Shown here: piece after piece, positions 9,030-61,027 of the stretch
How positions within the stretch are numbered: the stretch's first letter is position 1
How the letters are laid out: each line of letters begins with the position of its first letter
Notes under the pieces: generated by a model
Database searches by the model: none
The model's input: only the letters and a program-made list of their open reading frames with translations
What the model was told of the DNA's origin: nothing
NCBI RefSeq assembly: GCF_964194155.1
Contig: NC_135881.1
Coordinates: forward strand, 75,578,001 to 75,642,000
DNA length: 64,000 bases
Direction of reading: 5' to 3'
From: Cetorhinus maximus
Taxonomy: Eukaryota
Translations under genes and position numbers: made by a program

Positions 9030-10840
9030 TTTTTTTTTATTCATTCACGGGATGTGGGCTTCGCTGGCTGGGCCAGCATTTATTACCCATCCCTAGTTGT
9101 CCTTGAGAAGGTGGTGGTGAGCTGCCTTCTTGAACCGCTGCCATCCATGTGGTGTGGGTACACCCGCAGTGCTGTTAGGAAGGGAGTTCCAGGATTTTGT
9201 CACAGTGAAGCTATGGCTATATATTTCAAAGTCAGGATGGTGAGTGACTTGGAGGGGAACTTCCAGGTGGTGGTGTTCCCATCTATCTGCTGCCCTTGTC
9301 CTTCTAGATGGTATTGGTCGTGGGTTTGGAAGGTGCTGTCGAAGGAGTCTTGGTGAATTCCTGCAGTGTATCTTGTAGATGGTACACACTGCTGCTACTG
9401 TGCATCGGTGGTGGAGGGAGTGTATGTTTATGGATGTGGTGCCAATCAAGCGGGCTGCTTTGTCCTGGATGGTGTCAAGTTTTTTCAGTGCTGTGGGGGC
9501 TGCACTCATCTAGGCAAGTGGGGAGTATTTCATCACACTCCTGACTTGTACCATGTAGGTGGTGGACAGGTTTTGAGGCGTCACGAGGTGAGTTACTTGT
9601 CACACGATTCCTAGCCTCTGACCTGCTCTTGTAGCCACAGTATTTATATGGCTAGTCCAGTTCAGTTTCTGATCAATGCTATCCCCCCAGGATGTTGATA
9701 GTGGGGGAATTTAGTGATGGTAAAACCAGTGAATGTCAAAGGGTGTTGGTTGCATAATTCTTGTTGGAGATGGTCATTGCTTGACACTTGTGTGACACGA
9801 ATGTTACTTGCCACTTGTCAGCTCAAGCCTGGATATTGTCCAGATCTTGCTGCATTTGGACATGGACTACTTCAGTACTGAGGAGTCGCAAAAGGTGCTG
9901 AACATTGTGCAATCATCAGCGAACATCCCCACTTCTGACATTATGATGGAAGGAAGGTCATTAATGAAGCAGCTGAAGATGATTGGGCTGAGGACACTAC
10001 CCTGAGGAACTCCTGCAGTGATGTCCTGGAGCTGAGATGACTAACCTCCTACAACCACAACCATCTTCCTTTGTGGTAGGTATGACTTCAACCAGTGGAG
10101 AGCTTTCCCCTTGATTCCCACTGACTCCAGTTTTGCTGGGGTTCCTTGATGCCACACTTAGTCAAATGCTGCCTTGATGTCAAGGGCAGTCATTCTCACC
10201 TCACCTTGGGAGTTCAATTTTTTTGTCCATGTTTGAACCAAGGCTGTAATGAGGTCAGGAGCTGAGTGGCCCTGGCGGAACCCAAACTGGGCATCAGTGA
10301 GCAGGTTATTCCTAAGCAAGTGCCGCTTGATGGCACTCTTGATGACCCATTCCACTAGTTAATTGATGATCGAGAGTAGACTGATAGGGTGGTAATTGGC
10401 TGGAACAAAAACAGAATTACCTGGAAAAACTCAGCAGGTCTGGCAGCATCGGCGGAGAAGAAATCAGTTAACGTTTCGAGCCTTCATGGCACTTCGGCAA
10501 GTTCTGCCGAAGGGCCATGAAGGCTCGAAACGTTAACTGATTTCTTCTCCGCCGATGCTGCCAGACCTGCTGAGTTTTTCCAGGTAATTCTGTTTTTGTT
10601 TTGGATTTCCAGCATCCGCAGTAGCTTTTAGCTTTTTGTTTTTATCTCTGGTAATTGGCTGGGTTGGATTTGTCCTGCTTTTTGTGTAGAGGACAAACCT
10701 GGGCAATTTTCCACATAGCCAGGTAGATGCCAGTGTTGTAGCTGTACTTGAACAGCTTGGCTAGGGGCGCGGCAAGTTTTAGAGCACAAGTATTCAGTAC
10801 TATTGCCGGAATATTGCCAGGGCCCATGGCCTTTGCAGTA
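9030..10840 (-). mobile_element. Second non-LTR retrotransposon family (CR1/L2 group, clade not resolved), RT plus 3' end
   Basis: ORF pieces WKIAQVCPLHKKQDKSNPANYR, QFGFRQGHS..ALDIKAAFD and SWNSLPNST..FKKAAHHHLLK; poly-T (minus-strand tail) at 9030. Confidence 0.9.
10404..10648. mobile_element. Fold-back Penelope terminal-repeat insert with 14-bp TSD
   Basis: Near-perfect inverted repeat 10404-10600; TSD TGGTAATTGGCTGG at 10390-10403 and 10649-10662. Confidence 0.85.
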
Positions 10841-11866: not shown

Positions 11867-12335
11867 CATAAGACCATAAGATGTAGAAGCAGAAGTAGGC
11901 CATTCAGCCCATTGAGCCTGCTCTGCCATTGAATGAGATCATGGCTAATCTGATAATCCTCAACTCCACTTTCCTGCCTTTTCTCCATAACCCTTGATTC
12001 TCTTACTGATTAAAAATCCGTCTATCTTAACCTTGAATACACTTAACGACCCAGCCTCTACAGCCCTCTGTGGTAAAGAATTTCACAGATTCACTACCCT
12101 CTGAGAAAAGAAATTCCTCCTCATCTCTATCTTAAATGGGAGACCCCCTACTCTGAGATTATGCCTTCTTGTCCTAGACTCTCCCACATGGGGAAATAAC
12201 CTCTCATCATCTACCCTGTCAAGGAACCTAAGAATCTTATATGTTTCAATAAGGATGCCTCTCATTCTCCTAAACTCCAATGAGTACAGGCCCAACCTAC
12301 TCAACCTCTCCTTATAAGAAAATCCCTCCATACCC
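11867..12335 (-). mobile_element. CR1 LINE 3' fragment
   Basis: YKERLSRLGLYSLEFRRMRGILIETYKIL..RRNFFSQRVV on the minus strand; CATAAGAC tail. Confidence 0.92.
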
Positions 12336-12411
12336 AATGGCGACCTGGCAGCCGGTTCAAAAATGGTGCAGGCAGCCCCAGGGAGGCTGCCCGTGTCGGA
12401 GATGCAGCAAC

Positions 12412-14226
12412 ATGGCTGCAAACGAGGATGCAGAGACCAGGCGGGAGGTGAGGTCAGCTGGGCACTCAACCACCCATTTTTCCGACAAGTGCCTCACTGC
12501 CCTCCTGAAGGAGGTGGCTGCCAAAAGGGACACCCTTATCCCCAGGAATGGGCATGGGAGGAAGTGGCAGCCCAGGAGAGCAGCCACAATGTGGTACGGC
12601 ACTGCAGGGTGCAATACCGGAAACAGTTCAATGACCTGCTGCACTTAGGAAGAGTGAGTAACATGTTGGCATAGGTCAGTGTGTTGAATTGTTTTGGGCT
12701 GGCCCCCCAGAGCTCAGGGATGTTAGTCTGAGTGCCAACTGTCAATGATACTGGAGCTGGCCAAGAGGGTGAGCCCTGGCTGCTTGGCCTGAGTGTCTTG
12801 TGCCTCGAGGGCCACGACTCGGAGGTGCCTTTCAAGGTGCTCCTCAGCTGGGGTTGGCCAGGCTGCAATGGCGCTGCAGGTAGAGAGCAGAGTAATCAAT
12901 GCTTCTCTGTCCTTTCAAGAGAAATCATCCCATAACAATATTGAGAGGTCGCGGACTGGCGGAGGACTCCCACATCTCCTCATCCTCTCTCGATATGAGC
13001 AGGAGGCCTTGGAGCTCGAGAGGTGCCATGTATCTCGGTCAAGCGGCTGCGGCGAGACTGGGGTATCAGGTGAAAGTAAGAGTGCAGTGCACTGAATTTC
13101 AGCTTGTGCAACCATTCTAGTGTAGTCTCTTCATTGATGTGAGCCTCAAGCCTGGAGCCCCCATCGATCATTGAAAGACAAAGGCACCATGATGCAGATC
13201 TCCATTGTCTCACCAGAGTGCCTGGCATGTGATGACTTTAACTAATGACAAATCCTTTGGCTCACTTTTAGGTTCACAGCAGGCGTTTGCTCCCCGGACC
13301 CAGAAGGGCCACCCTGACCCCAGAGGGCCACCATGCTCCCCAAGCACCTGCGTCACACCCACTCTCCGAACTAGGCACCAGTGCTGATACCAGCACTTCG
13401 GTGGGCATTAGTTCAGCGGCTGGTATCTCATTGCACCTTGGGACGGCACTTCACACTCACTTGAGGTGCAGGCAGAGGCAGAGAGTGCCCAGGTCACCTG
13501 CAGTCAGAGGAATGCTGGAGACCAGGACAATATTCAGTTGCAGACTGATGATAGGCCTCTGGAGTCGTCCATTAGGCAGCAGATGCTGGAAGTCCAGCAG
13601 GGTGTGCGGGAGGTTCTGGCGGAGATCCAAGAGGGTATGTATGCCATGGTCTCTGTAGTGGGGGAGTCCCTGTGGAATGTGAGCACTGCATTGACCTGAT
13701 GGCCGAGTGCAATGCATCCTCCATTGAGAGAGTGGCGACTCTCAATGAGAAGCTGCTGCAGGAACTGGATCAGGGGTGTCTGGGTTTGCATTCGGACCTG
13801 AAAGCCCTCACACAAGCACTGGCCTCAAAAGCCAGTGTCCATGTGTGAGATGGATGGGGCACCCAGTATCCCAGCTAGGTGCCCATCCATTAATGGTGAG
13901 CAGGGAGGTCCACAGTGACTTCACGTTAGACCACGAGCTGCCTGTCGTCTCTGTGGGCTCCTCTCAAGGCACTCCGGATGATGGCAGCAGCTCCTCTGCC
14001 CCTCTGCCAGTGACCATGGCATCTGATGAGGCTGCGGCAACTGTGGAGATACCAGCCCTGGTACTGGCCGCTCTCTTCCAGGCAGGGCCAGCACGGGCTC
14101 CACTGGCTACCAAGGTCATCAAGGCCAACATGGCAGCAGAGTCAGGAGGCTGCTTCCAATGCTGGTGCCAGCGTGGGGGGAACATCTAGACGTAGCAGCC
14201 GTAAACGTAAGTTGAAAGCACATTAA
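12412..14226 (+). pseudogene. Harbinger Myb/SANT-like DNA-binding protein, 3 exons (12412-12653, 12919-13075, 13272-14226)
   Basis: HFSDKCLTALLKEV..AWEEVA..QYRKQFNDL, then EKSSHN..RTGGG, a coiled-coil-like segment and the basic tail RRSSRKRKLKAH. Frameshifted; first acceptor is CAA instead of CAG. Confidence 0.8.
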
Positions 14227-14557
14227 GCACATGAGGGACTGGACACGGGTGATTTTTTGTTCCCCCATTTTGTTTTTCTTTTTTTAATGGTGTGACTACC
14301 AACACTGGATATTGTTCCATTCAACTCTTATGTGAGTTCCAACATTAAATTACATTTGCTTTTGTGTTATTGGCCTGAGTATGCTTCATTTGTTTTGTAT
14401 ATGGCGGGTAGGCCAGTATGTAATGCTGGACGTGGGTGGCTAGAAACTTAATTGCACAGGCACTGAGTGTATCTTGGAGGCCAAGGAAATGGTCATTTCT
14501 ACGATCCAGGATGGAGATGGCAGCCCTGGCATGAGGTGGTAGTTCTTATTTGTCAGC

Positions 14558-15793
14558 TTAGCTGAAGGAGCGTTGGGTCAAGGCGTCCCTGGTATCCCCA
14601 CCTCCCTGGAGGTTACCGAGGCCTGGGTCTATGCCCTCAGCGTTCTGCTCACTGTGCTCATCTCCTGACTCACTACTGGACTCATCCTCTGTGGCCTGTG
14701 CAACTGCGTCAACATCCTCTTCCTCCAATGGGTCCCTCTTTGCCAGTGCCAGATTGTGGAGAGTGCAGCATGCAACTACTATCAGTTACACCCGCTCTGG
14801 GGGGCATTGCAGTGCGTCCCTTGAACGGTCCAGGCATTGGAAGCGCATCTTGAGAAGACCGGTGGTTCTCTCTACCACCGCCTTTGTGGAGGTATGGCTC
14901 CTGTTGTACCGCTGCTCGGCCTCTGTTCTTGGGTGGCGGAGAGGCGTCATGAGCCAACTTTTCGAGGGATAGCCCTTGTCACCCAGCAGCCATCCATCCA
15001 GTCAGGCTGGAGCACTGAAGAGTCCCGGTACCTGGGAGTGTCTCAGGACGTACGTGTCATGGGAGTTGCCAGGGTACCTTGCACGGACTTGCAGAATGTG
15101 CATCCTGTGGTCACACACTATCTGTATGTTTATAGAGTAGAATCCCTTCCTGTTGACGAGGCACCCAGCTGACCCACTGGTGCCCTGGTGGCCACATGTG
15201 TGCCGTCGATGGCACCCTGGATGCGGGGGAACCAAGCAATCGCCGCAAAGCCTCTGGCTCGCTCAGCCTGGCTGGCCTCATCCGTACGGAAATGAAGGAA
15301 AGTCAATACCCGCCTGAACAGAGCTTCTGTCACCAGCATGATGCGAATGTGGACAGAAGATTGGGAGACTCCACACAGATTTCCCACGGAGCCCTGGAAA
15401 GAGCTGGAGGCATTGAAGTTGAGGGCCACTGTGACCTGCAGAGCCACTGGCAAGGGGTGTCCACTCACACAGCTGGAGCTGATCTCCAGCCCAATCATCT
15501 GACAAATGGATGTCATGGTCTCCCTGCAGAGGCAGAGCCTCCTTCGGGCATTGCACCTTGGACATATTGAGGTATCTGCATCGCTGCCTGTAAACCCTGG
15601 CAGCAGGATAGTGGAGTCTTCTGCAGCGCCTTCTGCCTTGGGCTACCTGCTGGCCCTGCGCTCCTTGTGTCTGCACCTCTCCTTCCACAGGTCCCTCCCC
15701 TGGAAGCTGTATTAGGACACTTGGCCTCCTCTCCCTTCTGTACCTCTCTTCCTCCTCAGAGGAGGTGCCTCCAGCGGAGACCACAATCCTCAT
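14558..15793 (-). pseudogene. Harbinger (HARBI1-like) DDE transposase, disrupted
   Basis: [70 protein letters not shown]; several frameshifts. Confidence 0.92.
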
Positions 15794-16268
15794 TATCAGG
15801 GTAAGGGAAGGCTGTCTGAAACCTGGAAGGGTCCACACAGTCCACATCCCACGGGGGCCTGGAAGACACCAATGAGTCCAGAAATGAAGCCTCGAAATGC
15901 TAAGAATGAAGCTCAATCAGAGATTAAGCTGCCAAGTCTCAATAAGCCATCAGCAGCAAGTTATCTCCAAAACTCCTCACTACTCACATTGACAATGCTG
16001 CTGACCCATCTTATCCCACCAGGGGGTGAAGTTTTGCAAATGTTGGCTGCCCGCCTGCCCGAGCGAAAAATTGCACTGGCAATGTCAAATCACTGTCAAT
16101 TGGGTTGTCAGGGGCCTTAACTAGCCTCTTAATTAATGGTGGGCGTGGCTCCACTTCCACACACACCCATCAAGCGAAATATCATGCGAATGTCCGACAT
16201 CATCACATGTCATTTTATGCTCGTTCAGATCAGGCACGCGCCTGTCTGATGAGCTGAAAATTCTGCCC

Positions 16269-41450: not shown

Positions 41451-42299
41451 GGCATTTTACAGCTTTCCAGACTCAACACAGAGTTCCAAAGTGTCAGACC
41501 TTGACTCCTGCCCCTATTTTGTTTCCTTGTTCTTTGCTTATTTTGTTTTTTTCATTTTGTTTCTTTGTTTTTTTTGCTGTCGGGTGAAAACTGTTTGTGA
41601 TTCTGCAAGTCACAGCTCCTCTCAACACATCTTTTTAGAGTTGTAACCACATCATTTTCTCCCAAGTAAAGTCACAAGTCATATTTTTAAAGCCAAAGTC
41701 AGTGGTTGGGATTTTCTGCTTCCACCTGGGGAATTGGGAATCGTGGCAGGTGGGAGCACTAAATTTGGAGTGAAGAGAAATGTCAGTTACCTGCCGGTGG
41801 CAAAATAAGTTGGAATTTTCCTTCCCCGACTTTCATGGTGGGTCAAGTTTGCCCCTGCTCCATGCCGGGAAGCACATTTTCACCACTTTGCATCTCGTGA
41901 ATGCTCATTAAAAACACAACACTGGACTCACGTTCACACTCCAAATTTAAATGTCCCACCAGCGGATAATTCGAACCGTCTGTTTCACGACCGGCGTGTA
42001 CCTGGCAACCTCCACTTCGCTAGTGAGTTCAAGGTACGTAGGTGCTTCTTTCATCTGCCTTTCACAGCGCTACTGCAAGGTCTCGGTGCTTCTCTGAAGA
42101 GGCGCCAAGGCTGCTGCACGAGAGGCAATACCAGCAGGAAGGGGGAAGACACAGGTATGGTTGGGGGGAGTGCGTGGAGCAAGGGAGGGAAGGCAGGAAC
42201 ACAGACGCATGACTGGGAGGGGACACGAGTGGGGCACAGGATGGAAGGGGGAAAGGCAGATGCATGACGGAGGGGTGGGGGGAGTTGTCAAAGGTACAG

Positions 42300-42945
42300 A
42301 GAGTGGTAGTATGAGACACCCTGAAGCTGAGGGCACACTGTCGGGGCAGGTTCAGAATACAGTCCTGTGGCTGAGGGCACATTGCTGGGGGCAGCAGCAG
42401 AAGGCAGCCCTGGGATTGAGCGGGCCACGCTAGAGGACTCTGCCTGGCATGCATGTCTTGTTCCTGGTCCTGGGGGGGGAAGGCCTCTCTGGGCAGCGAT
42501 GGGTTGGGCACAGCATGCTGTGCAGGCATGGTCAGTGCACAACAGAGGTTGATCCTGGGGGTTGGTGGATCCATATTGGGAAACAGATGGCATAGTCACG
42601 GTCAGGGGAGGTATCTGCATCCGGTAAAGGGGGAGCTGGTAAGTCCTGGGCAGATATTAGAAGGTCTCATGGGGGAGATGTCCTGGAAAATTCACGATAC
42701 TTGTGGCCTCAAGAAGGGGAGGGGTCAGGTCCACATAAGGAATGGGCACATCGACAGAAAAGGGTTCGGGGGAACACAGGAATATCAGCATAAATGAAGG
42801 TTAGCTCCAGGGTGACAAGGGAGAGGCAGGAGGGTGATTGGACGGAGGGGAGTTAGGATGTGGTGAGGATGGAGGAGGATAGGTGGGACTTGAAGAGTAA
42901 TGAGGGAGTTTGGAAGCTGGCCTTAAACAGAAACTGCAGTACCAC
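42300..42945 (-). pseudogene. Harbinger type-B ORF3, Pro/Val/Ile/Thr-rich protein of unknown function (frameshifted)
   Basis: Manual translation VLQFLFKASFQTP/ITLQVPPILLHP/PEPFSVDVPIPYVDLTPPLLEA/RMQIPPLTVTMPSVSQY aligns to 54886-55595; 3' end uncertain. Confidence 0.65.
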
Positions 42946-43482
42946 AAGGCACCCCAATAATTTTCAGCTTAATTCCTGCAGATCATGGCCAGAATTTTCC
43001 TGTTGGCATGAGGGGGCGGGCCCCGCATACTGACGTGTAAAATGACACGTGGTGATGTCGGGTGAGCGTCCCAATGTCACTGCGTGCCATCGCGATATTT
43101 AGGTGGGCGGGCGTGTGATGTTCTCCGATGCGCGCCCGCCATTAACTAATCATGTAGTTAAGGCCCTTGAGGCAGCAACTGATGGCAATTTTTCAGGGCC
43201 CGTAAAATCTTCAGGACGCCGCAAGGGCGCAACGGGCAGGTTGGTAGGAGACATTTGTATAAATCTCAACCACGGGCGGGATAAGAGGGGTGAGTGGGGT
43301 CATGAATGTTATCTGTCAGATATTTAAGTGTGAAAGTTACTGATACTTGCCTGTGTGAGCAGGAATACTTCAAAACTCATAACAGCTGCTTGGACAGGAG
43401 TCATATCCTTCAGGTCAGGACTCTACAGTAAAGATCATTTTTGGGGCCTGGAGCTTTCAAGAAGCCTTCCCTTAGCCTGGAA

Positions 43483-44719
43483 ATGGGAGTTGTGCTCTCC
43501 ACTGGAGGCACCTCTTCTGAGGAGGAAGGGAGGGCCAGAAGGGGGAGGAGGCCAGGAATCCACATTCAGCCTCCAGGGAGGCAACCTTTGGGAGGAGAGG
43601 TGCAGGAACAAGGGGTGCAGGGCCAGCCGGAAGTCCAAGGTGGAAGGGGGCCGCAGAAGATGCCACTATCCTGCTGCCAGGGTATACGGGTAGCGAGGCA
43701 GCTACCTCAATATGTCTGAGGTGTAGTGCCAAATGAGGCTCCATCTCTCAAGGGAGACAGTCACCTCCATCTGCCAGATGATAGGCCCTGAGATCTGCAC
43801 AAACTGTGTGGGTGGCCACCCCATGCCAGTGGCACTAAAGGTCACGGCTGCCCTCAACCTCTATGCCTCCGGCTCTTTCCAGGGCTCAGTGGGTGATCTT
43901 TGCGGTGTCTCCCAATCAGCTGTCCACACTTGAATCAAGCAGGTGACAGATGCTCTGTTCAGGCGTGCATTGACATCCATCCACTTCCGTTGGGACCAGG
44001 CAAGCCAGACACAGTGAACCAGAGGCTTCGCGGCCATTGCTGGCTTCCCCCGTGTCCAGGGTGCTATAGACTGTACGCATGTGGCCATCAAGGAGCCAGC
44101 GGGTGAGCCCGGTGCCTTCGTCAACAGGAAGGGCTTCCACTCCACGAACGTGCAGATAGTGTGTGATCACAGGATGCGGATTCTACAAGTCTATGCAAGG
44201 TACCCAGGCAGCTCCCACGACGCCTACAACCTCAGACACTCCCAGGTGCCGAGGCTCTACAATCCTCTAGCCCGGCTGGATGGATGGCTACTGGGTGACA
44301 AGGGCTATCCCCTCAGAAGATGGCTCATGACGCCTCTCCGCCACCCAAAAACAGAAGCTGAGCAGTGGTACAATAGGAGCCACGCCTCCACAAGGGCTGT
44401 GGTGGAGAGAACCATCGGTCTTCTCAAGACGCGCTTCCGATGCCTGGACCACTCAGGGGACGCACTCCAATACCCCCCAGATCGTGTGTCACTGATAGTG
44501 GTTGCATGCTGTGCTCTCCACAAGCTGGCGCTGGAAAGGGGTGATGCAGTGGATGAGGAAGACATAGACGCAGTTGCTCCGGATGCACATGATGAGTCCA
44601 GCAGTGAGTCCGAGGATGAGCACACACAGCAGAATGCTGAAGGGGTAGATGCTGACCCGGGCATACTCCAGGGAGGCAGGGACACCTGGGAAGCTTTAAT
44701 TCAAAGAACCTTCAGCCAG
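43483..44719 (+). pseudogene. Harbinger (HARBI1-like) DDE transposase with in-frame stops
   Basis: [75 protein letters not shown]; several premature stops. Confidence 0.94.
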
Positions 44720-45044
44720 CCCACCACAGATGGACCCCCAACACACGCCAGGGCTCAAGTTCCATACTCGATACCTGAGTGGTAAATCTGCCTGGATAGT
44801 AACATGAACTAAGGCCATTGTCAATAAATCTCAATGGCAAACAACTCACTCATAACATCATGGGTTCCAATCCACCTGCAGAAGTAAGGAATCACCCTGA
44901 GGCATGGCAACATATCATAATTTAATGAGATTACAAACGTAACTTCAGAAACCAAAAAGCAAAAAGGTGTTGCACATCACACCAAGTCTTCAATAAACTA
45001 CTATGGGGCAACATAAAAGCACCAGTGAGAAATCCTTGGTGTGC

Positions 45045-47286
45045 CTAAGATGCCTTAAATTTATTCTTATGAGTACTACGCCTAGATGTTGTCGCCTCGC
45101 TAGCACTGCATCTGAGACAGCCTGCTCACTGTGCTGTCCTGTTGGCCTCAATGACCTTGGCAGGCATCCCCTGGCCTGTGGAGCCTTTGATGGCCCCACC
45201 TGGGAGGGAGCTGCCAGTTCCACGGCTGGCATCTCCCCAGTTGCCGCAGCCCCATCGGATGCCACAGTCACTGACAGAGGGGTGGAGGAGCTGCTGCTCT
45301 CATCCGGAGCACCCTGAGAGTAGTCTGCAGAGATGACAAGCAGCTGCTGCATCAACGTAAGGTTGCTTTGGACCTCCCTGTTCACCATAGATGGATTGGC
45401 ACCGAGCTGGGATACTTGGTGCCCAAACCATCCCCAACACGGGCAATGACCAGCTGAGGTCAATCCCGCTGTGAGGGCTTGCAGGTCCAAGTGCAACCCC
45501 AGGAGGCCCTGATTGTTTTCTGGAGGAACCTTTCCACGAGAGTCACCACTCGCTCCATGAAGGAAGCAAGATGTTCGGCCATGAGGCTCATTGCATTGGT
45601 GTTGCCCCGCATCAGCACGGGCACCATGCCACGCATTGCCTCATGTATCTCTGCCAGATCCTCCCGCATGCCCTGCTGCACTTCCAGCGTATGCTGCCTC
45701 ATGGATGACTCCAGAGGCACATCATCAGCCACCGGCCGAGCATGTGCCTGGTCCCCAGCAGTCCTCCGACTGCTGATGCCCTGGGCACTCTCTGTCTCTG
45801 CCCGTGCCTCAAGTGAGTGTGAAGTGCCCTCACCGCCATACCCCGGGATACTAGCTGAATATCTAATTTGCACCGAGGTGCCACTATCTGCGCTGGTGCC
45901 TTCTGGCAGAGATAGTGTGACGCTGGTGAGTGGATTCCCTCTGGGCCCTCAGGTGTGAGAGGATGGCCCCTCTGCCTCCTCCTCCTGGCCCTGTTCTGAT
46001 GATGCTGAAAGGAAGAACAAGGACGTTTGATTGTGGAGACAATTTCAATGTGCATGCCGGTCCCCTGGACCATTATGCGCTCATCCTTCCATAATCAATG
46101 GTCACCCCATGTTGCAAACTTCAATCACTGAGCATTCAGCAGTGCCATGGCTTCTGGGGCACACATGGTGACCTCAGCGCTCGGCAAACATACCTCCCAG
46201 TGATACCCCAGCCTCACCGCCACCGGTTGACCTGGGCGCATGGCGTCTCTCCAGATCCATGTCCTGCTGCTCAAAAAGTGTCAGGATTGCCAACCGGGCC
46301 TGGCCTCCGCCAGTCCGCATCTGCTCAGAGGAATTGTGCGTAGTCTTCTTCTGAAAAGGAGAGAAGAGCATTGATTTGTCCAGCCTGTAGCTGGATTCCC
46401 ATCGCATCCCTGGCAACCCAGCCAGAGTGGGACGTTGCAGGGCTCCAGTTCTTCGTTACCCTGCAGCTGCCGCACACTCACCCAAAGAAGCCAGGGCTGA
46501 CCACCCCCATTGCCCAAATACTGCCTCCTTCACATGTGGCACCACAAGGTGTAACCTTGCTAAGCAAGGAGGCACAAGCACGTGGAGCGCAAAGACCAAC
46601 AGATGGATTGGTGCCCCGCCAACTGGAAGTTCCCCTCCCAACATGTTAGTACCCTGACTTTGACATGCTTCCCAGTTCCAGCACTCTGCCTGGGTGCAGA
46701 TCCTTGACTTTCAACCCCATTCTACACTCTGGGTGTCAGTGTCACACATGCCGCGGGTGCAGAACCCATCTCAGCACAACCCTCTCAGGGTGAACTAGGC
46801 ATGGGCAATATCTGCTGGCCCACCCAGCGTGGGATACATGCCGTGAAGGATTCAATGTTGTAACTGTACTCGGAGTTACTGGGGGTGGGGTGGGGGGGGT
46901 GGGGTTGCGGTTGGGGGGAAAGGGTGACGGCTGCATTAAGTGACCAGAGCCAACATGGTACTCACCCTTCCCGAGTGCAGGAGGTCATTGAATCTTTTAC
47001 GGCACTGGGCCCATGTGCACCGCACCACATCATGGGAGCTCACACTCTCAGCCACCTCCTCCCATGCACGTTTGTTCAGATGGGGAGGCATCCGCCTCCC
47101 ATCCCTTGGAAGCAGGACCTCCGGCCGTGCTGCCATCTCCTCCAGGAGGGTAGCTAGGCACTCACCAGAGAAACGATGGGCATACTGCTCCGCTGGCCTA
47201 CCCTCCAGCCTGGCCTGCCCCACTGGCCTACCCTCCAGACTTGCGTGCTGCACAGTTACCCTCTGCTGTGCTCTTCTGCCAGCCAT
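45045..47286 (-). pseudogene. Harbinger Myb/SANT-like protein, 3 exons (47286-46966, 46350-46194, 46004-45045)
   Basis: Exons 1 and 2 splice in frame at GT-AG sites: RFSGECLATLLEE..AWEEVA..QCRKRFNDLLHSGR|KKTTHN..RTGGG; exon 3 frameshifted. Confidence 0.85.
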
Positions 47287-48154
47287 TGTAAGCAGTCTTG
47301 CAAAGGCTACCAGGCCTTCATTTAAACAGGCCGCCAGGTCACCATTGGATCCAGCAGTCTGTGCACGCCTGCCACCGCCCGCCTACTCCCGCTATCCTCG
47401 GGAGTCGAGAAATACGCTGGGCGGGCCTTAATTGGCCCGTCTGTGTAAAATGGCGGCACGGACCTGATTGCGGGCGGCGATCGGGTCCACGCCTGCCTAC
47501 TCCCGCTCAGCCCGCCCAACATGGGGAAAATTCTCCCCCATGGCTCAGCTGGGATCTGTTAACATGTGCCTTATGCCAATTGAAGCATTTTGACACCTTA
47601 ACTCATGGAGCACATTCATGCAAGAAGACATTAAGTCTTGGGGAAATGTTTGATTTGGTCTGATTGCCCACATGTGTGTAAGGGAAACATGTAATGAGGG
47701 AAGAGGGTGCAAATAATTAAGGTGCCACAGCTCATGGGCATAAGCATCAAGCTCTAGGCAAGGGTCCACATCATCATTTCAATGGTCATGTCTTACAGGC
47801 CACAACGCTTGCAGCCATGAAACTGGAGTGAGTCTGGACTAGTGTCTAGCTACAGGAGTCTAAAGGAGCCAGGCTGACGGTAGCCTGATTGAGGGTGAGT
47901 GCACATGGCTGTATTCACCCTGTTCATAACCCCATAGTCAACTCACTGTCATGTTGGAGTGGGCTGTTCAGCCACCTGTGAACCTTTAGGATGTGTTTCA
48001 GCATCAAGGGGTTGCCTGGGGAAGACATGTCATGAATGAGGGCAAGTCCATGGTTCCATGCTGGCCTCGTGCTATGCCGACTGAGGGAAGGCATTTCAGG
48101 GTAATATGCAATCATGTCTCCATTCTATTTGACCACAGATACAAGGAGGAGTGT

Positions 48155-48866
48155 ATGATGCAGGCTGTAGGTAATGCTGCCTTCTTGATAGCTCTCATAC
48201 AAGTTTGGGGAAGAAGGACTCGTCACTATAGGGCACAGCTTAAGGAAAAGCGCCACCCTGACGATCAAGAGCCAACAGGGGCTGAGGAAGGCCCTGATGC
48301 TGCCGAGGAGGAACCACATCCATGGAGGAATTTGGCATGACCAAGGGTTTTCAGAAGATGCCCATCATACTTAGAGAGGAGCGAGAGGCAGTGCCGTAGA
48401 TGCCTGCGATTGTCAAGGGATGTGATGGATCATATCTGCCAGATCCTCTGTAAGGATCTCACTCTGCATGGACTGGGAGGCCATCCAATGCTGGTCATGC
48501 TGAAGGTAACTGCCATTCTTAACTTTTGTGCCAGCGGATCATTCCAGGGCTCCATTGGAGACCTCTGAAGAATATCGCAACCCTCTGCTCATAAATGTAT
48601 AAGGGAGGATACCGCTGCCCTTTTCAATAAGGCACTATCATGCCCAGTTCTCCAAGGATGAAGCCAGCCAGGCTGCTAGAGCAGTGGGATTCGTAGCGAT
48701 CTCCGACGTCCCACAAGTGGAGCCTGTAATTGGCTGCACGCATGTGGCCTTAAGAGCTCCCTGGCAGCAGCTAGTTAGGTTTATCAGTAGAAAAGACTTC
48801 CACTCTCTCAACGTGCAGCTGATCTGTGATCGGCAAAAGCAGATAATGCAGGTTTGTGCGAGGTGT
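48155..48866 (+). pseudogene. Harbinger transposase of element B1, N-terminal half
   Basis: LKVTAILNFCASGSFQGS, VIGCTHVALRAP, RKDFHSLNVQLICD; truncated after QVCAR. Confidence 0.85.
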
Positions 48867-49372
48867 ACGGCTGTAGTAGTTAATGGTGTATGATGAGGGC
48901 CTTTGCTGGGGGAGGTGGGGGTGGGGGGGGCGGTGGCGGGGTTGGGGGATGAAGAAAGAGAGGAGAGGCACAAATAGCTGCGGCAGAATTGGATGCAAAA
49001 AAGATTGCAGGGTGGGTAGAATGATGGAAGTCTTGTGGGAATTTTGGATGGCTGTATTGGAAAAATGGAACAGGAGCGAAGGAGGGGCTGTGGGGGAAGA
49101 ATAGGACTGTGAGTGGGGGAATGCAGGGGGAGGAATGGGACTATGAGTCGGGGGAGTGCAGGAGGAAGAATGAGACCGTGAGTGGGGGGTGGTGGGGGCT
49201 TGCAGGTGGTCAAAGGGAACATGAATGGGGGGGCGGGTGGTGCAGGGGAGCAAGAGGAACGTGAGTTCAGAGGTAGGAGTCGGTGGTATCAATTGAAGAA
49301 TCCTGGGGGGGCAAAGCGAGGGAATTGGCTGTAGGATTGAATAGTTACATTTACAGGAGTTAATGTTATGCA

Positions 49373-49687
49373 CTAGGGTGGGAGGGTGAGGGTCCTGCGA
49401 AGACGAGTGAAGGGGCGGTTAGGGTTGTTGGAGAGGAAACAAAATGAAACGCAGATCTTTGGTGTGGGAAGGACAAGGGTGGGCATAGGAATGGTGACTG
49501 GGGTGGGCTCTTTGGGGAGGAACGGGATGTGGACATTCACTGTAACTGTTGCAGGGTGGGGTTCGAGGATGACCATGGAGAGGTTGATAGTGATACACGG
49601 GGGCATCATTGCTGATGGGGGGATGGTCTGGGTAATGGGGGGAGGGTAAAAGGTATTTAAACGAGCCTTGAAGAACACACTCACCAT
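49373..49687 (-). pseudogene. Diverged homologue of Harbinger ORF3 (104-aa ORF)
   Basis: MVSVFFKARLNT..PITQTIPP..VNVHIPFLPKEPTPVTIPMP aligns to both ORF3 copies; GCAGCCATGG Kozak context. Confidence 0.5.
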
Positions 49688-50292
49688 GGCTGCTCCAGAT
49701 TTACCCAGTGCCCCGAAGTCCAGATATGGAAATGCTGGATGGGATTAGGGTCATCGGGTGGACGGAGCTGGGTGTCAGCTCAACTAGACAACTAAAGGGG
49801 AATCCAAACATGTCGTCCTGACTAGGCAAAAGTGATTGTATTGAAAAGGCTGTGACGGGTCAAAGAGCAGTGTTGGGGGGGGGGGATTCTCGCTGGTAGC
49901 TCACAAGGGCCATGGCAAAGATCAATGTCTCCCTGCACACGCATGATTCCAGAGGGACATAGACCCAGGCAGGGCTGTCCCCTTGAATATAGGGGGTACG
50001 CACAGGCATTAAAGTGAACAGACACAATGGAAAGACAGCAGACCTCCTTAAAGTGCAACTGTACATATATTAACTAGTGTGCATTAACAAAAAGCAATGA
50101 TAGTGCATTTGTGCCACTATAGTGAGATCAGTATTTCTTTATTTAACATTTCCTGCCACTGTGTCTCGGTACTTTCCTGACATCTGCAGCAGGGGTGAAG
50201 GCAGACTGCTGACCCTGTGCCCCATTGCCTTTGATGACCTTGGCCGCGGCCTCTGAAGCCTTGAGGCCTGGAGGGCCCTGGCTTATTCAGGC

Positions 50293-52770: not shown

Positions 52771-54885
52771 CCCTTTTTCACCACATGCTTTCCAAATCTA
52801 GTATTTTATTAGTGCATGAACGAAACTTGTGGTATGTATAATCCGTTTCTCTTTTCGTTTCTTGCAGGTGGAGACTGCGTGCCTTGCTTTGTCAGCAGGC
52901 AGAGTTCATGCAAGGTCACTTTCCCAGGACCTTCTAACTGTGTTTGTGTTTTCCAAGCATGTGGGATTACAAATAATGTACCCCCACCAAACTAGTTTCA
53001 TCTTTCTTTGTAGAATAGGAAAGTTTCCTGTGGTGTGAGTGACTTGGTATTTTTATCCCACTCAGCCTGAACTGACAGGAAGTGATTCCTTTGTAAATAT
53101 TGGAAGAAGCCGTTTGATGGAATTGCCATTCAGCTCTGTCATCCATTTAGCCTTCAATGCTAATTAATGTGTCAATGAATGTCATATGGATCATTTATGT
53201 CAGTGATATGTTGTAATTGGTAGTCCCCGCCCTAAGGTGCTGACTGAATATCTGGAATATGCCATGTATGCAGTTTTTGGTGAATTTTGTTTCCATCATT
53301 AGAAAGGATATAAGTACTAGGAAGCTGAATGTTTTCTCATTTTGGCCACACAGGCTACTAAATAGCAAAGTGATAGGCTTAAATATTCCACCCAATCGTA
53401 CCCACAGACAATTAGCACACACAAGATTGACAAAAAGGCTCAGTGAGCCTATTAAGATGTATCAATGCCTGACTATAACTATAATATTGAGTGCTTCTTG
53501 AAGATTTCACCATCACAATGTCTTGCTTTTAGTGTCACTCTATAAATGAAAGCATGCACATGTGATCACCAGCCAGCTTTCCCCGATTAGGCACAGCTGC
53601 CAAGATGCCACGATCCACATCTACAGGCATTGGCATAGACAGTGTGGAAGTTGCAGTGCCAAGGTCGCTGAAGTGTAGATGTAGAGTTGCCACCACCTGC
53701 TTGAAGAACACCTGCAACTACAATGCAGCACAGAGCTGGCAGACAGTGACAGTAACAATGAGTTATGATCTGAAACTTGACTCTCCCTCCTGGCAGGTAT
53801 GTTGCAATGCTGACCTATGGGGCTGTGCCATGAGTTGACTTGAAGACAGCTCTCCTCAGAACCCTCTTGAGCACCGCTTGCGCTTAAGCAGCCATCAAAC
53901 AAAGGATTGGTGCTGACTGCTTTGTTACTTCCTGCGGAATGAAGTGTTGACTAAATCAAGGTGGAACTTTCCCACCCTGCCCGTGGCAGGCGGGAGCAGT
54001 GAATCCAGCGGGAGTCAAAATATCAGAATAATGCCGGTGTAAAAACAGTTCGCAATTCTCCTGATGGCAGGTCAATGGCAGGTCGGGTATCCTGCTGACT
54101 AGTGGCATGAACGCCATTTGCATTCATTAACTTCTCATGAATGCTTATTAAATTAGCTGCTTGCCAGAATCACGTGCTCCTTCCAACCTTACGTCACGCC
54201 AGTGGGAAATCGCGTTGGTCTGAATCATGTTTGAGAAAGAGTGGCATGCAGCGGTTGGACCTCACTTCGCTGGTGAGATGAGTGCAACATTCATGGCCCA
54301 CCTGCCACAACACTGCGCCGATCTTGTTGCATTGCCAGTGGAATGCCACACTGCTGGGGGTGTGGGGTTAGTTTGCTTCTGGTGGGTGCCACCGTAGTCC
54401 AGAAGGGCACTACTATGCAGCAATACTCAGGCCGGGCTGAACTTTCAGACAGAGACCAGCATTTCAAGCGGTGGGGGGGGGGGGGTTGTTGGTAACGGGG
54501 CGGGGGGGGAGATGGGGGGGTGGTGCATGACAAACACACGAGGGGCAAAGGGGAAGAAGGGCATTGAAAGGGGTTAGGGGGTGGGGGAAAGATGGAAGGC
54601 AGAGGGAAGACCGAGGGGTGGGAAGCTAGAACCTGACAAGGGAAACTGAAACACTGACAAAGAAGGGGGTGGATGGGATAACATATTAATGGGTGGGAAG
54701 GAATGCTTGCAGAGTCCGGAATAGGAAAGGCGAGGGTGGGGGGTTGTTGTGTTAGTGTGGCACAATTGGGATGGGTCGCACTGAGACTCATGAAGTAGGT
54801 GGGGGTAGCTGGGAAGGGAGACAGTGTAGTGTTCAGTCACAAGGGCATGGGGAACCCACTGAAAGTCAAAGTCCTTGTTCTGGGG

Positions 54886-55595
54886 CTAGTGGATCGGAGT
54901 GAGAAAGTAGAGACTCTCTTTGGGCTCACAGTCAGGAGTGAGAGAGTAGAGATACTCCTTGGACTCACGGTCATCAGTCAGAGAATATAGACAGCCCTGG
55001 GGCTCTGTGGACCTCACAGTCAAGAGTAAGAGAGTTGAGACAGTCCTGGGGTGCAGCGGGTCATGCTGCAGGGCTATGCACCATGTTGTACTCCTACTCC
55101 AGGAGGGGCAAGGGCTGTGTGCTAAATTGGGATAATGCACAGCCTTGTGTGCAGGGCTGTCTCACAGTTTCTGTCCATGGGCTTGCCTGTCTCTGTACTG
55201 GGCTGCAGATGGGATGGTAATGGTTATGGGAGGCATCTGCAGCCTGGATTTGGAGAAACTATAATAAAGGGGAGGGGTGGGGGGGGTGGGGGGGCTATGT
55301 GAAGGTCTGCTAGGTGGGGTGAGTCTCCTCTGTAGGTGACCATGCACACAGCCTCAATTTGGGGAGGATGGAGGTCCACATGGGGCATGGGCATGTGAGG
55401 AGTGATGGGCTCAGGGGCGAGGGTAGGAATGTTGACCACAACAAGAATGGGATCCATTATTACTGGGTGATGCTGGGGAATAACAGGAGGGAGCACTACC
55501 TGCACATCCTGAGGTTCCAGGTAAATTTCTGGGACGTGCACAGTGAGAGAGGGAGCATTGAAGCTGGTCTCAAAGGAATAGCAGAGAACTACCAT
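54886..55595 (-). pseudogene. Harbinger type-B ORF3 (copy in B2)
   Basis: MVVLCYSFETSFNAPSLTVHVPEI..PEPITPHMPMPHVDLHPPQIEA, then after a frameshift RLQMPPITITIPSAAQY; AAGATGG start context. Confidence 0.65.
54895..55050. repeat. 39-bp tandem repeat, about 4 copies
   Basis: CTCACAGTCAGGAGTGAGAGAGTAGAGA.. units; 13-aa periodicity visible in the ORF track. Confidence 0.75.
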
Positions 55596-56289
55596 CTTGC
55601 ACTATCAAACTAATGGCAAGTTATAAATCAAAAGTAGAAGCAAATCCAACTGGGAGGTGTCTGAGGCAATGTGGGAGGAGCACCCTGCTGAACTAAGAGG
55701 CCTTTTCTGGTGGCGGCCTCTAACTTGGTAGTACCACAAGATTAAAGTGGAGTCAGAACTGAGAGAAAGGAGGAAGACCTCCTTGAGAAGCTAGCCATTG
55801 GATCCCATGCATTTTACCGTGTTGTAACAGGGAAATGTAGGACTCTCTGGCTTAACATTACAGTCACTGCATTTCAACAATAACACACAGGAATGTGAAA
55901 TTTGGGAATTGAGGCAACCATTAAGGTATTGCATATATGGCACCCCATCAATGGAAGACTTTCATGTGCTTCCCAGAATTGGCATTTGTAATGGGTCAAA
56001 GGGCACCTAGTCATTAATCTTGAGCAATTTATTGCGAATGAGTATGGCAGATCTGAGATTGGAGCGCAAGCCTTCTCCAGCCACTGTGGGATTCAGATGT
56101 TAAGTCTCAGGGATGGCATCTTGGTCACCTCGATGTGTCTGCTGGTGCCTGAGGTACAAGGCTAGTAGGGCAGAAGCCACTATAGACCATTACAGTTGCT
56201 ACTGGTTCAAGATTGTGAGCTTCACTATGTTCACTCATTATTCATTAATCTATTCAATCTATCATTTCAGAGAGAAAGACAAAACATTT

Positions 56290-58299
56290 ATGGATCAAGG
56301 GGGCTCAATGCTGCCTTTTTGAGGGTTCTAATACAATGGAGGAGGAGAAGAAGGGACAGGATTAGCTTCAGGAGGATGCCCCGCCTGAGTTCAAGGGTGC
56401 AGGGGAGCCACAGCAAGGACATGAGGATCAGGAGGATAGGCCCAGAGTATGGAGGACACTCGCTAGACCAAGGGTACACCAAAGAAGACGCTCCTATTTA
56501 CAGATGAGTGAGAAACAATGCTACACACATCTGCACTTCTGCGGAGCTCTGGTAGATCATGTCTGCCACAGTTTTCATGGAGATAAATGTGAAGTTATAT
56601 GCTTCAGTGTGAAAAACAGAAAGGCAGAGTATTATTTAAATAGGGATATATTGGGAAATGTAGACGTACAAAGGGATCTGGGTGTCCTTGTACACCAGTC
56701 AATGAAAGTAAACAGGCAGGAGCAGCAAGCAATTAGGAAGGCAAATGGTATGTTGGCCTTCATTGCAAGAGGATTTGAATTCAGAAGTAGGGATGTCTTA
56801 CTGTAATTATACAATGCTTTGGTGAAACCACACCTGGAGTATTGCGTGCAGTTTTTGTCTCCCTGCCTAAGAAAAGGATATACTCGCCATCGAGGGAGTG
56901 CAGCAAAGGTTCACTAGGCTGATACTGGAGTTGGCAGGACTGCCATATGAGGAGAGATTGGTTCGATTGGGTCTGTATTCACTAGGGTTTAGAAGAATGA
57001 GAGTGGATCTGATTGAAATGTATAAAATTCTAACAGGACTAGACAGACCAGATGCAGGGGGGATGTTTCCCCTGGTTTGGAAGTCTAGAACCAGGGCCAC
57101 AGTCTCAGGATACAGGGCAGGCTATTTAGGACTGAGATGATGAAAAATTTCTTCAGTCAGAAGGTGGTCAACCTCTGGAATTGTCTACCACAGAAGGCTG
57201 TGGGTTCCGGGTCACTGAGTATATTCAAGAGAGAAATTGATAATTTTTTGGATATTAAGAGCATCAAGGGTATGGAGTGAAAACAGGAATATGCCGTTGA
57301 GATAGAGGATCAGCCATGATCATATTGAATGGCAGAGCAGGCTCGAAGGGCTGAATGGCCTACTCCTGCTCCTAGTTTCTATGTTTCTATGTTTCTATGT
57401 TTCTAAGACCTAATGCCCCATGGAGTGAGTGGCTATCCTCTCCAGTGGCCTTGAAGGTGACTGCCATGCTCGATATCTTTGCCTGCAGGTTGTTCCAGGG
57501 ATCCACAGGGGACTTGTGCGTGGCATCTCGCAGTATGCCACACATAGATGCATCAAAGAGACCACAGAAACCCTCTACGCAAGGCACATCATTATGTAAG
57601 ATTCATACTCAATGAAGGTAGCCAGGCTGCGAGAATCAATGCAGCTATCTCAGGCTTCCCAGGAGTGTAGGAAGTGGCTTTAAGGGCTCCACGGCAGCAG
57701 CCCCTAATGTTTATCAACTGTAAAGGCTTTTATTCCATCAATGTTCAATGGATCTGCAATCATCAGAAGCACATAATGCACTTTTGTGCCAGGTACCCTG
57801 GGATTTGAACTTTCATACATCCTGAGTAACTCCCAGGTGCCTCAGATATTCGAAGGGCCTGAGGTGTCTACAGGGCTGGCTGCTTGGGGATAAGGGGAAA
57901 CCACTGAAACACTGGCTCATGACACCAGTGCGTTGGCCTCAGAGTGCTTGGGAGGAGAGGTACAACTCCACACGGTCCCTAATTGAGCAGACCATTGGCA
58001 TTCTGAAGAAGAGCTTCCGATGCTTGGACCATCAGGTGGCACGCTGCAGTACACTCCAGATAGGGTATCCCGCATCATCGTGGTGCGCCCTTCACAACTT
58101 GATATTGCAAAGAGGTGATCCCTTGCCAGAGGGTGAAATGGAGGAGGATAAGAGCTCCTCAGAGGATGAAAGGCAGGAGACCCAGGAACCTGAAGAGCCT
58201 GGTGAGGGTCAGCTTCCACAGGACAATGCAATCAAGGAAGCACGACATGGAAGACATACTCGCGCCACTTTAATTGGAACCAGGTTCCATGAGAAATAA
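56290..58299 (+). pseudogene. Harbinger transposase of element B2, split by a CR1 insertion
   Basis: [50 protein letters not shown]; first catalytic motif (AIDCTH) deleted. Confidence 0.88.
56569..57405 (+). mobile_element. CR1 LINE 3' part inserted in the B2 transposase
   Basis: DKCEVI..QRDLGVLVH..YEERLVRLGLYSL; (TTTCTATG)n tail. Confidence 0.95.
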
Positions 58300-58489: not shown

Positions 58490-58704
58490 AGAAACCCTCT
58501 ACGCAAAGCACATCATTATGTAAGGTTCACACTCAATGAAGATAGCCAGGCTGCGAGATTCAATGCAGCTATCTCAGGCTTCCCAGGAGTGTAGGATGTG
58601 GCTTTAAGGGCTCCACGGCAGCAGCCCCTAATGTTTATCAACTGTAAAGGCTTTCATTCCATCAATGTTCAACGGATCTGCAATCATCAGAAGCACTTGA
58701 TGCA
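58490..58704 (+). repeat. 215-bp direct duplication of 57566-57780
   Basis: Near-identical copy, including the same internal deletion. Confidence 0.92.
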
Positions 58705-59169: not shown

Positions 59170-61027
59170 TCAATGTTTCTTAACTTCCCTAACCCTACTA
59201 CTATGTATAGGTGCAGCCCCGACATCCGCAGCAGAGGTGGAGGCAGCCTGCTGACTGCTACATCTTGATGTTTGTGATGACCTTGGCAGACATCCTCTGG
59301 TGGCTCGAGGGCCCCAGCCTAATAAGGGTCTCCTGCTCAGAGGCAGATGCACCCTCCTCAGCCTAAGCAACTGAATTGAATGAACGGGGTCACAGGCAGA
59401 GAGGATTGTGAGAGGCTGGACATCCTTGGAGTGTCCTGAGTGGAGGACCCTGGGGTGTCTGACTCTCATCCTCCATGAGGCTTCCCGAGGTCCCCTCCCT
59501 GACTTCTTGAGGAGAAAGGGCACCTGGATGGAGGTCAAGATGCCTCGTTCCCCTCTCGCCTAGACATTGATGCTGCCCACTAGTGTGTGTGGTCATGGAG
59601 TCCAGGGCCGAGTGCAAATCCTGCTGGAACAAGGTCTCCATGGTGGCCGCCAGCCTTCCCATGGCAACTCGAGGCACTCGCATGTCGGAGCCACGACATG
59701 AGACAGAACGCGGATGGATTCCTCCATCCTTTGCTCTAGTCTGCTGGGAGACTGCTGCATCTCTGCCTGATGTTCCTGATGCCCACATCCTGTTGTTGCA
59801 TATCCAGCATTGTGTTGGCTCATCATCTGAGTTGGACTCAGCGGGTAGCTGGTCTCCAGCAGCCCTCCAAGTGCCAGGTACCTCAGCTGTCCCTGCCTCC
59901 AACTACTGCGGGAATGTGTCAGTGAGATCTTCTCCAGTGGGTGACCCTGACCCTAATCTAGAGCTATGCCCCACCGAGGTGTGTGCCTCTGTGCTGATGG
60001 AGGGCACGGATGAGTGCAGTGACGGTTCTTTGGTGGCTTCCTCATCCGAAGTGGTCAGGGGGGTGGGGCTTCATTTGGCCATCCTTCTCTGGCAAGATTT
60101 ACTGGTGTCAATAAGAGAGAGAAGAGAGTTTTAGTTCATGAGCAGCAAAATACAAGATTGCATTTCACTCACTGTGAATGTCAGGGTGTGATAAATTCAT
60201 GGAGTGTCATCCATACTATGCTGCTGGGAGAAGCCGATCTTCCCTTCCCCACAGGAGTGATCCCTGTCCTCCCCAGCCTGCTCAGTGGCTTCCTCCTTGA
60301 ACTTGATGAGGTGAACAATGTCAGCTGCCCCTCCCCTGGTCTGGAATCTTTGATGTCAGTTGTGGGTCAGCTTGCCCTGGATGAAGACAAAAAGTGATGA
60401 GGAGGGAATGACCATTAGTTGGGAAATGTGCCTGATCCTATGTGTGGACCTTCTCCCCAGAAGGGGCTGAGGATGGACTGTGAGCAACATGATCGATGAG
60501 AAGGTGGTGATGTGAAAGTTTCTGTGAGACATTTGTCGCCGCTAAAGATGTTGTATGAGAACCCTGAAGGGATTAGCAATTTGAATGCATGATTCCATAA
60601 CGAGAGTTTGACATTGGAGGGAATTAAAGGATGACTTACACTGACAGAGCATCTGGGATCATTCACCTTCTTCCTGTACTGGATGGTGTTGCGGGTGCAG
60701 TGGCCAGCTGTGCTGTCCTCCTCTGCGATGGACTCCCAGGCCTGAGAGGTGAGGCAGGTGTGCTTTCTGAAGCTGTCCCTCGGGTACAGCACAGCCCTAT
60801 ACTCCCGCATTCCTTGTATCAAAGCCTTAAGGGCTGGGTAGGAAGTAGTGTGGCTTGCAGGCTTAGCTCTGAAGAAGGGTCATATGAACTCGAAGCGGTA
60901 ACTCTGTTTCTCTCTCCACAGATGCTATCAGACCAGCATTTTCTGTTTTTATTTCAGATTTTGAGTATCTGCAGTATTTTGCTTTTTTTTTTTGGCTTGC
61001 AGGCTTCTTCCTTCGGTTGCCAGGCAT
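59170..61027 (-). pseudogene. Harbinger Myb/SANT-like protein of B2 (exon 1 61027-60640, exon 2 60376-60217, exon 3 to 59170)
   Basis: Removing the 60865-60992 insert restores MPGNRRKKPA..ALKALIQG..QAWESIAEE..IQYRKKVND; exon 2 GKLTHN*..QTRGG; basic C-terminal tail. Confidence 0.8.
60865..60992 (+). mobile_element. Short Penelope terminal-repeat insert with 14-bp TSD
   Basis: TGGCTTGCAGGCTT at 60851-60864 and 60993-61006. Confidence 0.85.

Follow-up and report, generated by a model that had tools for sequence, protein, structure and literature searches.

A third gene under purifying selection in Harbinger transposons, retained in elements that lack a transposase

The window analysed is a 64-kb stretch of the 4.0-Gb Cetorhinus maximus genome. 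It carries Harbinger transposons of several lineages, three of which hold a copy of an additional gene, ORF3. The features are, in order of position:

12300-16268, minus strand: another type-A Harbinger, sharing 74% identity with the nested copy below; no ORF3 match
41703..48864, plus strand: host element of the S2 ORF3 copy (left TIR at 41703, ORF3, interrupted spacer, transposase remains)
42540..42948, minus strand: ORF3 of the S2 lineage (ATG region lost, several frameshifts, mutated stop)
42950-42985 and 47540-47600: conserved-looking stretch upstream of the S2 copy, judged by eye
42987..47538, plus strand: nested type-A Harbinger (transposase on plus, Myb on minus, own TIRs, CAT target duplication), without ORF3
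48865-50290: transposase-less Myb+ORF3 Harbinger derivative
49267..49687, minus strand: ORF3, S3a lineage copy (one stop and a late frameshift)
49690-49820: conserved-looking stretch upstream of the S3a copy, judged by eye
50121..50266, minus strand: 3' end of Myb in the S3 element, lying ~435 nt upstream of where ORF3 starts; no transposase intervenes
53959..53975, plus strand: left TIR of the S1 element
54886..55161, minus strand: stretch past the S1 stop codon, without coding signal; likely 3' UTR
55162..55595, minus strand: ORF3, S1 lineage copy (ATG at 55595, TGA at 55164-55162)
55600-55720, minus strand: conserved-looking stretch upstream of the S1 copy, judged by eye
56290..58299, plus strand: DDE transposase of the S1 element (PF13359, E 2e-6), split by a LINE-like insert at 56584-57404
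59170..60879, minus strand: what remains of the S1 Myb/SANT gene (PF13873 match at E 3e-4, slightly short of the curated cut-off)

The S1 element thus runs from its TIR at 53959 through ORF3 (minus), a ~700-nt spacer and the transposase (plus) to Myb (minus); its right end is not fixed. Part of its transposase is duplicated directly, with 215 nt at 57566-57780 and 58490-58704 being 95% identical. The S2 consensus matches 41703-42989 and 47539-48864, so that the spacer is broken at 42986 and resumes at 47539, with the host's own transposase remains at ~48140-48864. The preliminary description had placed the 42948 copy of ORF3 in a type-B element, which is right (TIR at ~41703), though a type-A Harbinger is nested in the spacer. 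A contig from a second organism spans this S2 copy (41889-42945), showing 70 differences in ~1060 bases, and breaks off close to the nested element; the S2 insertion it covers is possibly orthologous. Elsewhere in the window, 10404-10600 holds a 96-nt inverted repeat that is nearly perfect and has a loop of 5 nt.

Harbingers normally encode a DDE transposase and a Myb/SANT partner. The carriers of ORF3 belong to the Harbinger/PHIS superfamily by their transposase, their Myb/SANT gene, and their TIRs with 3-bp target duplications. The DDE_Tnp_4 domain was found in type A (PF13359, E 1e-36) as well as in S1, and the Myb/SANT domain in type A, in S1 and at two S3 loci (PF13873/PF13837), with the curated cut-off reached by two of these four pieces. 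Identical 3-bp flanks stood at TIR-like ends in 14/40 type-A, 6/40 type-B, 4/20 S1/S2 and 3/20 S3 loci, counts which used a loose TIR motif and may include some chance pairs. Among 27 duplications, a single TAA fitted the TWA of strict PIF/Harbinger and none the CWG of NuwaI, with one CAG seen separately. The available text of PMC4482050 describes PIF/Harbinger elements with two ORFs and classes of target duplication. The elements found here resemble canonical PIF/Harbinger and Nuwa, as the accessible parts of PMC4482050, PMC9392472 and PMC9179366 present them, in DDE_Tnp_4, Myb/SANT, short TIRs and 3-bp duplications, but differ in carrying a third conserved gene and in having variable duplications (ATT, CAT, AAT, TGT and others) rather than a fixed TWA or CWG.

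ORF3 comprises 136-143 codons. The preliminary description had correctly placed its start at 55595 but extended it to ~54886, whereas the frame stops at 55164-55162, so that 55595-55162 on the minus strand encodes a protein of ~140 aa. The Cys cluster and the SPLAWPAQ/SPAA*PAA block, through which homology of the protein was said to continue, both lie past the stop and gave pN/pS of 1.17-1.26 in all three sense frames. By contrast, the reported identities of two peptide blocks (16/34 and 10/17) and the substitutions in the second (5/1/8 by codon position, four synonymous codons) were reproduced exactly. Both copies then known are indeed frameshifted in the window: the S1 copy within a poly-C linker (~55270-55310), and the 42948 copy, which also lacks an ATG and has a mutated stop at 42542-42540. 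A third, more distant copy at 49687-49267 had been overlooked. This S3a copy was detected with consensus peptides, to which it is about 40% identical; it scores E 3e-29 with an HMM whose alignment includes it, and 29% (E 4e-4) against the S1 copy by direct BLASTP. By eye, ~130 nt upstream of the ATG also look conserved across S1, S2 and S3, without a clear coding signal, and are a possible promoter or 5' UTR.

Selection on ORF3 was assessed from 102 copies grouped by tree, 4 of which were left ungrouped, by comparing five S1/S2 group consensuses. These consensuses yielded the open frames that the preliminary description had proposed looking for: S2b is open over 136 codons, S1x and S1z are open up to a CpG-derived stop two codons short of the final stop, and in S1y and S2a the frame slips by one base within C-runs. 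The S3b consensus is likewise open, and S3a1 and S3a2 are open in three gap-free pieces. Computed on two blocks either side of the poly-C linker, dN/dS was 0.20-0.33 in nine of ten S1/S2 consensus pairs and 0.51 in the tenth, with zero stops. The antisense shadow frame gave 0.29-0.60 but with 5-9 stops, and the remaining frames 0.59-2.8. As had been anticipated, the ORF3 ratios lie well below 1 and far under the neutral control (copy decay, same method), which gave 0.77-0.78. The transposase, at 0.04-0.17, is more constrained than ORF3, and a sliding scan found low ratios without stops only over these two genes. The earlier proposal of an extra protein gene with past purifying selection, tied to Harbinger ends and antisense to the transposase, is thus supported, and we consider it very probable that ORF3 is a genuine protein-coding gene of these transposons.

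The end of the gene was also informative. A Leu codon followed by a stop occupies the equivalent position in 56/61 S1, 16/24 S2 and 31/36 S3a copies, the stop being TGA in S1 and S3a and TAA or TAG in S2. The proteins of S1, S2 and S3a all end in Leu despite differing in the residues before it. The frame is kept across the poly-C linker in 6/28 S1 copies (selected on DNA) and 14/30 S2 copies. Because the linker is scrambled in copies, the C-terminal frame in S1 rests on the consensus and the substitution pattern. An alternative C-terminal frame (GCRCLP) was rejected, as substitutions avoid the second codon position of the YRLQMPP frame, which is also the one retained in the distant S3 clade. 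Stops and neutral ratios likewise led us to discard an N-terminal extension of ORF3 and a frame of ~100 codons further upstream in S1. Between S1 sublineages, DNA identity was 0.93-0.94 in ORF3 and 0.83-0.90 in transposase and spacer, the opposite of the S3 pattern described below.

S3 elements, which are abundant and bounded by TIRs, combine ORF3 with Myb in the absence of the transposase. Their ORF3 is colinear with that of S1/S2 at 32-43% amino-acid identity, with synonymous sites near saturation. In 20 S3 loci of 10 kb, Myb lay upstream on the same strand in 16 and a transposase lay between Myb and ORF3 in none; two loci had a transposase 3.5-5 kb off, outside the shared sequence. The S3b consensus spans ~3.3 kb from TIR to TIR and holds Myb and ORF3 only. 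S3b has additionally lost the C-terminus and 3' UTR of Myb to a deletion; its Myb frame therefore continues to a stop ~45 nt short of ORF3, an arrangement which could yield a two-gene mRNA. S3a1 (28 copies) and S3a2 (30 copies) share an identical Myb-spacer-ORF3 junction. Between them ORF3 has dN 0.12, dS 0.69 and a ratio of 0.17 (95% bootstrap 0.09-0.28), against 0.67 (0.45-1.05) for Myb exon 3 and 0.72-1.39 for the spacer. ORF3 therefore stayed constrained between two transposase-less lineages. In every S3 pair, divergence at four-fold sites is 2-3 times higher in ORF3 than in Myb exon 3, and hence some of the selection may predate transposase loss or may reflect cassette exchange. The constancy of the ratio suggests a rate difference instead.

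We also examined how ORF3 is distributed across the genome. The S1 ORF3 peptide was matched at 150/150 scored places out of 11,478 candidates, and S3 ORF3 gave 21,859 and 29,664 first-pass candidates. Pieces of the transposase gave 122,163 (type A) and 64,253 (type B). A transposase lies within 1.5 kb upstream of ORF3 in 53/71 S1 and 21/29 S2 loci but in 0/55 S3 loci and 0/58 further S3a loci (four of which repeat earlier loci). As previously stated, type A lacks ORF3: 2/40 type-A loci match it, both outside type-A sequence. Type B had been credited with ORF3 on the strength of its two window elements, but among 40 type-B loci, namely the top 20 transposase matches and 20 selected for long frames, only 11 matched ORF3, 10 of them in the expected place. 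In the loci examined, ORF3 never occurs in an element type without Myb. ORF3 thus tracks the Myb gene and not the transposase, and three gene sets have been amplified: transposase, Myb and ORF3; transposase and Myb; and Myb and ORF3.

Among the remaining 29 type-B loci, 17 with both flanks kept were inspected, and 16 of these have lost the gene through one common deletion, whose junction maps ~100 nt upstream of the ATG. In the consensus of this ORF3-deleted S1 lineage, the transposase is open over a stretch of 352 codons, and Myb exon 3 is open as well. Its copies fall inside S1 in the midpoint-rooted transposase tree, built without an outgroup, where they make up 24 of a 28-leaf clade (support 0.9). 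ORF3 is accessory because this younger lineage deleted it yet kept an intact transposase and Myb, and because type A never shows it. It is likewise dispensable for transposition, since the deletion lineage went on to amplify with those two genes. The accessible text of PMC9392472 gives transposase and Myb as what cut-and-paste requires.

The ORF3 protein (136-143 aa) is 20-24% Pro (about 22%) and 32-38% V/I/L/F/Y. It shows no membrane helix by hydropathy and no catalytic, membrane or DNA-binding motif; its pI is 4.4-8.8 and its charge is not conserved. All five consensuses carry a 7-residue repeat, with self-similarity at lags 7, 14 and 21 (z 1.8-5.0). An AF2 model from the cross-clade alignment was all-beta with short strands throughout (mean pLDDT 78.8, pTM 0.46), whilst the shallower S1/S2 alignment gave a poor model (pLDDT 55). 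ORF3 is thus predicted to be an extended all-beta protein of h-x-h-x-x-P-P heptads, perhaps loosely like the proline-strand repeats of periaxin/AHNAK or ApoB.

No family had been recognised for ORF3 in the preliminary description, and no described protein was matched in our sequence or fold searches. Pfam, queried with 46 aligned members, returned no family, only two single weak matches, and neither a SET nor a TET/JBP enzyme. A search of 5.8 billion proteins (one copy, the 46-row alignment and longer proteins) found no relative, and an HMM scan of 1.84 billion representatives with the S1/S2 alignment found no credible one, its lone match (E 2e-4) being a tandem-repeat peptide judged spurious. 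PDB sequences, PHROGs, ESM Atlas, viral contigs and Rfam held no ORF3 relative; a single metagenome match was a 17-residue chance match without HMM support. Three fold searches with the pTM 0.46 model (Foldseek PDB, Foldseek viral, VIA wide) found no relative, with best values of E 0.6 (PDB), E 1.3 (viral) and Z 2.8 (VIA). ORF3 is apparently an undescribed accessory gene family within the known Harbinger superfamily.

Two readings would deny ORF3 the standing of a separate gene. The frame could be a by-product of C-rich non-coding sequence, yielding no protein. Its DNA is indeed C-rich with unstable poly-C tracts, and recognition by a protein language model was low (1078, 975), a measure that is not decisive for gene reality. 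This reading is nevertheless highly improbable and already contradicted by a third-position bias of 17/8/50 without stops, by a stop position conserved despite differing stop codons, and by an alignment that stays colinear although amino-acid identity is 32-43% and synonymous sites are nearly saturated. Alternatively, splicing could join ORF3 to the Myb transcript as its 3' exon, or ORF3 could arise by alternative splicing. In every lineage it follows Myb on the same strand, and in S1 and S2 its ATG is preceded by a pyrimidine tract and CAG. In each of the three clades, however, homology begins at a Met in strong start context. Myb exon 3 ends at a stop of its own in the S1, S3a and S3b lineages (in S3b in a different frame from ORF3), and S1y has two non-CpG in-frame stops immediately before the ATG. 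We regard a splicing origin as quite unlikely.

As to function, we favour a model in which ORF3 would serve the Myb/SANT protein of the element as a non-catalytic partner and promote the expression or mobilisation of its family. In Harbingers, family-specific DNA binding is the role of Myb, which would bind family-specific sites and bring ORF3 there. At these sites, ORF3 might act as an adaptor or decoy against host silencing, or help to recruit transposase from another copy. A Myb-recruited adaptor is favoured because Myb is family-specific and ORF3 was never found without it, and a benefit restricted to the family would explain retention of ORF3 in a transposase-less element. The co-retention of ORF3 and Myb may, though, reflect position on the element only, and ORF3 was lost in one lineage without blocking later amplification. 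We put the probability that ORF3 is such an adaptor, keeping its family expressed or attracting transposase in trans, at roughly 0.4, all of its functional steps being inferred. A less probable alternative is that ORF3 acts on the host cell and not with Myb, blunting host defence (piRNA, KRAB-like or DNA-methylation factors) or favouring survival of germ cells that carry the element. Its moderate constraint and fast charge turnover fit an arms race, and plant DNA transposons have anti-silencing genes such as VANC (according to the available portions of PMC12730594 and PMC10398659). Against this, a freely trans-acting factor brings little gain to the copy encoding it, which makes selected retention in transposase-less lineages harder to explain, and ORF3 has no homology to known effectors. 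It is rather unlikely that ORF3 is a self-limiting repressor of transposition, whose loss would raise activity. The KP deletion repressors of P elements are a comparable self-limiting case. The sets without ORF3 look younger (7% from consensus for the ORF3-deleted S1 lineage and 5% for type A, versus 9-18% for ORF3-bearing groups and 28% for one), and most type-B transposase loci examined (29/40) lack an ORF3 match; but both younger sets were partly selected for long transposase frames, which biases them young, and the ORF3-bearing S3 elements amplified heavily, as their 29,664 and 21,859 first-pass candidates indicate. The adaptor reading also has a bolder form, which we hold to be doubtful, in which the lineages split the gene set (transposase and Myb; Myb and ORF3) and complement each other in trans, with ORF3 the first known anti-silencing cofactor of a vertebrate DNA transposon and a new proline-heptad beta family.

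No third ORF in a vertebrate Harbinger was found described in the open literature, where PMC1131882 and PMC3627910 contained nothing bearing on it; Repbase, Dfam, subscription journals and supplements may carry an earlier annotation. Three-protein mosquito Harbingers were reportedly described by Kapitonov and Jurka in 2004. HarbingerS (with a SET methyltransferase) and PHISTA TET+ are likewise Harbinger-superfamily elements with an extra gene, proposed to be anti-silencing; as the accessible part of PMC12730594 describes them, however, they are oomycete and rust-fungal and carry recognisable enzymes, and the third protein of PHISTA replaces Myb, whereas ORF3 has no enzyme domain and stands beside a normal Myb. 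The MADF-only derivatives of Caenorhabditis inopinata are also TIR elements with a DNA-binding gene and no transposase, with inferred mobilisation in trans (PMC13668399, available text); unlike them, S3 retains a second gene, ORF3, under measured purifying selection. VANC of VANDAL/MuDR, the source of our functional model, is similarly an optional transposon gene thought to be family-specific (PMC12730594 and PMC10398659, in the parts available). It belongs to another superfamily and kingdom and has no sequence match to ORF3; VANC is itself a DNA binder, while no DNA-binding motif is seen in ORF3.

Vertebrate Harbingers have been described as two-gene elements, and this genome adds a third gene without a known relative. 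Harbinger Myb genes have been domesticated repeatedly in vertebrates, which makes an ORF3-derived host gene worth seeking. The Harbinger expansion found here is very large although, in their available text, PMC4482050 and PMC9179366 report the superfamily as absent from sharks and from elephant shark, respectively; an expansion is also described in newt (PMC5741667, accessible part). That ORF3 was kept under selection without the transposase raises the question of what a protein of a DNA transposon does for the copy that encodes it, and the two-protein Harbinger assay in human cells, cited in PMC9392472, makes this question directly testable.
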